Of a stretch of DNA of 64,000 nucleotides, positions 2,473 through 3,246 are shown piece after piece. Position 1 is the stretch's first letter. Every line of letters begins with the position of its first letter. The notes under the pieces were generated by a model, which was not told where the DNA came from, made no database searches, and was given only the letters and a program-made list of their open reading frames with translations. Made by a program: the position numbers and the translations under genes. The stretch is from Escherichia coli (GTDB lineage: Bacteria > Pseudomonadota > Gammaproteobacteria > Enterobacterales > Enterobacteriaceae), in NCBI RefSeq assembly GCF_030013595.1, contig NZ_CP122768.1; one strand, given 5' to 3'.

Positions 2473-3246
2473 ATGGATATTACTGAGTTTCCTTCTGGAG
2501 TAATTGAACACCTTGGCTGGTATGTATACCGATTGATTGATCCTAGGGACGGAAGCACCTTCTATGTAGGGAAAGGCAAAGGTAACCGCGTATTTGCCCA
2601 TATGCGCGGTGAAGTGGCAGCGGCTGATGATGACGAGTTACTGAGCAACAAGCTAAAGCAAATCAGAGAAATAAGATTAGCGGGACTTGAAGTTATCCAC
2701 GTCATCCATCGACACGGAATGACTGATGAAAAGACGGCGTACGAAGTTGAAGCAGCACTTATTGATGCCTACCCTGGGTTAACGAATATCATGAATGGTG
2801 CTGGCAGCAATGAATTCGGCGCCGCGCATGTCAAAGAGTTGATAGCAACATATCAACCCGAAACCATAACATTTCATCATAAAGCATTAATGATTTCCGT
2901 TAACAGAAGTGCAAAGGATTCAGAGCTTTATGATGCGGTTCGATTTAGCTGGCGCATTAATGTCTCTCGCGCCAGCCAAGCAGAAGTCATTCTTGCTACT
3001 GTAAGGGGGATCGTTCGAGGGGTTTTCATTGCTGATAAATGGCTCAAATCAACACGTGAAAATTTCCCTACGATGAAATACTGGGACGAAGATCCTGACT
3101 TTGAGGCAACACAAAGTTCTCGCTATGGTTTTGAAGGTCGAGAAGCCCCACCTGAAATAGCAAATCTTTATCTTGGAAAAAAAATACCAGATGAATTAAG
3201 AAAAAAAGGAGCTATGTCCCCGGTCCGTTACTCACCTAATTTTTGA
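2473..3246 (+). CDS. GIY-YIG nuclease family protein with ~140-aa C-terminal domain of unknown function
   Basis: N-terminus has GIY-YIG-type motifs (YVYRL ... [14 protein letters not shown] ... YEVEAALI); ATG at 2473, no obvious SD; moderate-to-low GC. Confidence 0.65.

Follow-up and report, generated by a model that had tools for sequence, protein, structure and literature searches.

A CMoRE/PD-T4-3 restriction gene

The gene that converges on the pin invertase in the window, a 64,000-nucleotide stretch of Escherichia coli DNA (contig NZ_CP122768.1), is almost certainly, judging from its sequence, a member of CMoRE/PD-T4-3 that would act by the mechanism of the published enzyme. PD-T4-3 (Vassallo et al., Nat Microbiol 2022) was originally found in a functional selection (PMC9519451) and was renamed CMoRE by Liu et al., Nat Commun 2026 (PMC12923530). 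The system, its discovery, its structures and its mechanism are already known, and the points that go beyond the literature are only the anatomy of the cassette that carries the gene and a possible PUA-like ancestry of its sensor domain. The identification gives a defined defence function to a gene whose sole label was "LEM-3-like GIY-YIG domain-containing protein".

The open reading frame (ORF) extends from an ATG at 2473 to a stop codon at 3244-3246 and encodes 257 aa (Table 1). The same start methionine is used in the RefSeq annotation of identical E. coli DNA and in the crystallised homologues (9U75, 9U7U). The protein matches the PADLOC PD-T4-3 model (PDLC04031) with E = 2.2e-140, residues 1-256 aligning to positions 1-255 of the 256 in the model, and PHROG 5356 with E = 2.9e-143. 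It is identical to the E. coli O157:H7 CMoRE (PDB 9U75, chain A) at 254 of 257 positions (98.8%) and to the APEC O1 enzyme (PDB 9U7U, chain A) at 219 of 257 (85%). Both enzymes (9U75 and 9U8D for O157:H7, 9U7U and 9U7Z for APEC O1) share the length, architecture and single-gene organisation of the window gene. It departs from the O157:H7 enzyme by three substitutions only, D55E, K169Q and H197N; E55 and N197 also occur in the active APEC O1 enzyme, while Q169 occurs in neither crystallised protein.

Table 1. Position, strand and supporting evidence of the features at the CMoRE locus
Feature	Position	Strand	Evidence
Left direct-repeat copy bounding the cassette	2249..2286	.	
Candidate weak sigma-70 promoter (TTGTGA, 17 nt, TAATAT; TATAAT-like)	2412..2440	+	by eye
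CMoRE gene	2473..3246	+	ORF call; PADLOC PD-T4-3, PHROG 5356 and PDB matches
GIY-YIG-domain part of the CMoRE gene	2515..2802	+	
Acidic run D52 D53 D54 E55 of the autoinhibitory loop over the active site	2626..2637	+	sequence
C-terminal modification-sensing domain (about aa 128-257, Y127 at boundary)	2854..3243	+	
Right direct-repeat copy, hairpin between convergent CMoRE and pin	3270..3305	.	RNA folding
pin (Gin/Pin-family) invertase of the e14-like prophage	3304..3858	-	

A sequence-only reading of this locus had assigned the N-terminus to the GIY-YIG nucleases and had proposed a Pfam search and a comparison with an AlphaFold model as checks. The Pfam search places the N-terminus in the GIY-YIG superfamily, residues 28-110 matching LEM-3_GIY-YIG (PF22945, E = 4e-14). 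The classic GIY-YIG model PF01541 gives no significant match and NCBIfam gives none, so that the protein is recognised by PF22945, PADLOC and PHROGs only. The motifs on which the reading relied are present as W-Y17-V-Y19-R-L, F-Y31-V-G-K-G-K-G-N-R39-V-F-A-H43 and Y-E91-V-E93-A-A-L-I. Across 80 aligned homologues of diverse origin, Y17, Y19, P24, Y31, G33, G35, R39, H43 and E93 are invariant; the glutamate that the reading had picked out downstream is E93. An AlphaFold 2 (AF2) model of the protein (pLDDT 93) retrieves the CMoRE crystal structure as its best structural match, followed by GIY-YIG nucleases, and its lowest-confidence, disordered segment is residues 52-56 in the acidic loop.

All residues named in the published work are kept: Y17, Y19 and Y31 of the GIYxY-YIG motif with its three tyrosines, the interface residues R80, V92 and L96, Y127, and the acidic loop D52-E55 between helices 2 and 3 (PMC12923530). 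The paper does not number the catalytic arginine and glutamate, which must nevertheless be present because the differences from the O157:H7 enzyme are limited to positions 55, 169 and 197; they correspond to R39 and E93. The loop run D52-D53-D54-E55 is identical to that of the APEC O1 enzyme. The C-terminal half, about 130 aa, has no match in any Pfam or NCBIfam model, in line with the sequence-only reading, which had recognised no motif there and had suggested a sensor or DNA-binding domain; the sensor alternative fits, as the region has the published CMoRE modification-sensing fold and the contact residue Y127. The gene thus combines a nuclease and a modification sensor in one ORF, as in a type IV restriction enzyme, and no methyltransferase gene is found in its cassette or among its neighbours (pin and hypothetical proteins).

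Activity and predicted mechanism

With the O157:H7 CMoRE, protection against T2, T4 and T6 reaches about 5 logs (PMC12923530). The purified enzyme with Mg2+ or Mn2+ cuts DNA containing 5hmC or glucosyl-5hmC and leaves DNA with C or 5mC uncut; likewise, T4(hmC) is restricted and T4(C) escapes (PMC12923530). The cut pattern is C N11/N9 G with 2-nt 3' overhangs, two modified cytosines are needed, and function requires a tetramer (PMC12923530). [quoted passage not shown] Cleavage of 5hmC/5ghmC DNA and T-even protection have been published for the O157:H7, APEC O1, Klebsiella, ECOR68 and NILS69 proteins.

These steps were measured on the 98.8%-identical O157:H7 enzyme, from which we infer them for the window copy. 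The protein would assemble as a tetramer, a dimer of dimers, with C-terminal domains that bind DNA containing 5-hydroxymethylcytosine or glucosyl-5hmC. A dimer would sense two modified cytosines about 21 bp apart, which is itself a model in the paper, and the GIY-YIG domain (Y17, Y19, Y31, R39, E93 and Mg2+/Mn2+) would cut between the two sites in the C N11/N9 G pattern, leaving the 2-nt 3' overhangs. The acidic loop D52-E55 would shield the active site and repel unmodified or 5mC DNA; as it would keep the enzyme off host DNA, no protective methyltransferase would be needed and the chromosome would be spared. Tightly bound modified DNA would outcompete the loop, a step that is likewise a model in the paper. 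Incoming T-even DNA would be destroyed early and the infected cell would live, that is, by direct defence and not by abortive infection.

An abortive-infection toxin, a non-specific nuclease that infection frees to kill the cell, is a highly improbable description of this gene. When the four acidic loop residues of the O157:H7 enzyme are changed to alanine (the 4A mutant), it does cleave unmodified DNA and becomes toxic, which shows that the fold has the capacity for self-damage (PMC12923530). However, cells with CMoRE survive and grow normally at a multiplicity of infection (MOI) above 1, in vivo the enzyme depletes T4 DNA and leaves the host genome intact, and there is no allosteric activation by 5hmC ligands, since neither 5hmC DNA nor 5hm-dCTP triggers cleavage of ordinary DNA (PMC12923530).

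A broader target range under the same mechanism, including other hypermodified DNA such as that of Mom-modified (carbamoylmethyl-adenine) Mu, is conceivable but rather unlikely. PD-T4-3Capno, a Capnocytophaga homologue that shares 48% identity with the original E. coli PD-T4-3, was obtained by selection against Mu. It breaks down Mu DNA in vitro, and T4 DNA as well, but not T4-GT7 DNA (PMC12366544). On arabinosyl-hmC phages CMoRE has mild activity. It works in NILS69, its native host, and in K-12 it acts on Tevenvirinae; in both hosts Tequatrovirus and Dhakavirus are hit and Mosigvirus is spared (bioRxiv 2024.12.20.629700). For the E. coli enzymes, however, the good substrates shown are 5hmC and 5ghmC only. 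The window strain should resist T-even-type phages with 5hmC or glucosyl-5hmC in their DNA, a prediction relevant to the choice of therapy phages.

The level of protection differs between CMoRE alleles, because that of APEC O1 is weak when driven by its native promoter (PMC12923530). For the O157:H7 gene, the native upstream DNA supports activity (PMC12923530). We infer expression in the window strain from the conserved upstream DNA. The candidate promoter of Table 1 scores 8 of 12, too low for the cut-off of the consensus scan. That scan gave neither a promoter nor a terminator on the + strand, and no strong promoter or Shine-Dalgarno sequence was detected upstream of CMoRE.

Relation of the sensor to PUA-like domains

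The C-terminal sensor was published as a distinct fold without structural homologues. In a structure search, its matches include ASCH (5.4), YTH domains (4.2-5.3), McrB N-terminal domains (4.7 and 3.7) and the PUA-like domains of ATP sulfurylase and Lon, with AbaSI and the UHRF1 SRA domain lower (about 3). Foldseek independently returns YTH, ASCH and VcaM4I only, as weak hits (E = 0.015-0.2, TM 0.3-0.48). A Pfam scan of 36 C-terminal domains for EVE, ASCH and YTH gave no match. The two structure-search methods thus place the sensor weakly but consistently, and below threshold, beside the PUA-like readers EVE, YTH and ASCH. On the basis of these structural comparisons, the sensor may belong, as a highly diverged member, to the PUA-like (EVE/YTH/ASCH-type) readers of modified bases, a tentative assignment to which we give slightly less than an even chance. 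If so, it would flip the modified cytosine of duplex DNA into a conserved aromatic site, for which W160, W190, F220 and Y253, with R157 and R217, are candidate residues on the strength of their conservation in the family; the site would not be the edge position at which soaked 5hm-dCTP was observed. In that case CMoRE, as a fusion of GIY-YIG and PUA-like domains, would join the large class of type IV enzymes with PUA sensors. The relationship does not change the activity of the enzyme.

The type IV enzymes directed against 5hmC or ghmC, PvuRts1I/AbaSI and the EVE-HNH enzyme VcaM4I, have PD-(D/E)XK or HNH rather than GIY-YIG nucleases and a domain order unlike that of CMoRE, whose sensor is detected by no Pfam PUA-clan model. 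In comparison with the GIY-YIG proteins I-TevI, T4 EndoII, UvrC and R.Eco29kI, CMoRE has an extra tyrosine (GIYxY-YIG), a 15-residue acidic lid and a modification sensor, and it is without their DNA-binding modules and partner domains.

Distribution of the family

CMoRE is present in 957 of 5,426 complete E. coli genomes (about 18%). The E. coli genes form two allele groups, with at least 95% and about 75% nucleotide identity; the second is taken to be the APEC O1 type, and it too lies where a prophage ends, next to a DUF262 protein and what remains of an invertase. In strain ZJ3920 a DUF262 (GmrSD-like) gene adjoins the divergent allele. The whole family comprises 4,858 clusters (50% identity) at E <= 0.001, 334 of them below 1e-30. 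Full-length homologues with 38-45% identity occur in lytic jumbo phages of about 255-285 kb, where they are annotated as endonuclease or homing nuclease; examples are Serratia phage Moabite (NC_048792.1, 6406-7161) and Pseudomonas phage OBP (NC_016571.1, 158703-159449). These phages may use them against competing phages with modified DNA.

Anatomy of the cassette

The direct repeats that the sequence-only reading saw on either side of the gene are confirmed at the positions in Table 1. Each is about 36-38 nt long, with a 26-nt core in which 23 positions are identical, and the copies are 1,021 nt apart; the 1,021-bp cassette between them holds CMoRE as its single ORF. The position described for the gene likewise stands, convergent with pin and divergent from a - strand ORF (1549-2070). 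The right repeat, which begins immediately behind the stop codon of pin, forms a stable, terminator-like hairpin on either strand: the predicted RNA fold has -27.1 kcal/mol (z = -4.3) for the pin strand and -20.9 kcal/mol (z = -3.4) for the CMoRE strand.

With the empty site as query, many E. coli genomes match uninterrupted across the junction, the best being strains B1S11 and OZ546993, with 100% coverage. These loci without CMoRE have one copy of the repeat, directly after pin. The repeats are therefore not a chance match, since related gene-less loci carry the sequence exactly once at the same position. In the simplest reading, the repeat is the terminator of pin; acquisition of the cassette would have duplicated it, or it would be a substrate for cassette loss. 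The hairpin is now also found downstream of CMoRE. An integron-like array of hairpin cassettes was considered and rejected: searched with an HMM built from the repeat, occupied loci give exactly two hits and empty loci a single one, and the rest of the window gives no hit.

The polymorphic presence of the gene and its flanking repeats would also be accounted for by a free-standing homing endonuclease of the GIY-YIG type, a selfish gene whose product cleaves a particular empty site so that the gene is copied into it. This is nonetheless scarcely credible. The 98.8%-identical O157:H7 enzyme acts on 5hmC/5ghmC DNA only, has no strict sequence requirement and leaves the E. coli chromosome untouched (PMC12923530); with this specificity, therefore, an unmodified empty site could not be cut. 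The C-terminal domain is the CMoRE sensor and not a DNA-binding module of the I-TevI type, and the match to a homing profile is marginal (phrog_314, E = 0.0022). The repeat itself, a terminator-like hairpin present once in empty sites, fits recombination at the hairpin.

A further 26-nt inverted repeat (2987-3012 and 3863-3888, 22 of 26 positions complementary) has one arm in the CMoRE ORF (peptide ILATVRGIV) and the other in the ribosome-binding region of pin. None of 300 dinucleotide shuffles of 1800-4000 reaches 22 of 26 (maximum 20). The pin-side arm is kept in loci without CMoRE, the CMoRE-side arm lies on a conserved peptide, and the divergent allele (about 75% nucleotide identity) matches at only 16 of 26 positions. 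Inversion of CMoRE by Pin was considered and appears unlikely, as this inverted repeat does not represent a Pin crossover site. The true sites lie at 3920-3939 and 5773-5792; they are 20 nt long and 95% complementary. They enclose an invertible segment of about 1.85 kb with alternative tail-fibre C-termini and tail-fibre assembly genes.

The prophage end as an exchange point

The window holds an e14-family prophage integrated at icd (26633..27883), with an HK97-type head, a Mu-type contractile tail, the pin invertase and the invertible tail-fibre segment. An IS10/ISVsa5-like element stands in place of the prophage early region; at 24354-26519 an IS10/ISVsa5-like transposase gene (402 aa) is followed by an integrase gene and then icd. 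The prophage is defective, having lost its early, lysis and regulatory region. The G+C content of CMoRE is 43.7%, compared with 54.8% for the prophage structural genes.

Homology with the K-12 e14 prophage ends one base past the pin stop codon, beyond which e14 continues with mcrA and the window with CMoRE. McrA (EcoKMcrA) therefore occupies in e14 the place that CMoRE has in the window, with pin on one side and the end of an icd-integrated e14-family prophage on the other. Both are single-protein type IV enzymes acting on modified cytosine. However, McrA is an HNH nuclease with a different sensor domain and a sequence unrelated to that of CMoRE, its gene is co-oriented with pin whereas CMoRE is convergent with it, and CMoRE, according to the paper, ignores 5mC. 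Two unrelated type IV enzymes thus share one slot at the prophage end. Type IV restriction genes are thus exchanged at the pin-proximal end of e14-family prophages, which carries McrA in K-12, CMoRE in the window and other cargo elsewhere.

Between CMoRE and a 488-aa hypothetical gene, the small - strand ORF at 1549-2070 (129 aa in related genomes) encodes an N-terminal hydrophobic, signal-like segment and has no family match. The 488-aa gene, at 1-1233 (-), lies in a stretch of 30-36% G+C just past CMoRE at the prophage end, and a complete copy is present in a related locus (L002, 19768-21234, -). It has no Pfam domain; PADLOC gives marginal matches only, to an LmuA-like N-terminus (E = 0.0036) and to WYL (E = 0.0038), and its N-terminus shows a PD-(D/E)xK-like 'D...QCK' pattern. 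It may be another defence gene.

The cargo beyond pin varies among strains. In ECONIH1 it includes hypotheticals and a gene for an FRG-domain protein. E. coli T16R has a 'GTP pyrophosphokinase' gene there, and its pin is interrupted by an IS26 resistance island (fosA3, rmtB, blaTEM-1, blaCTX-M-55).
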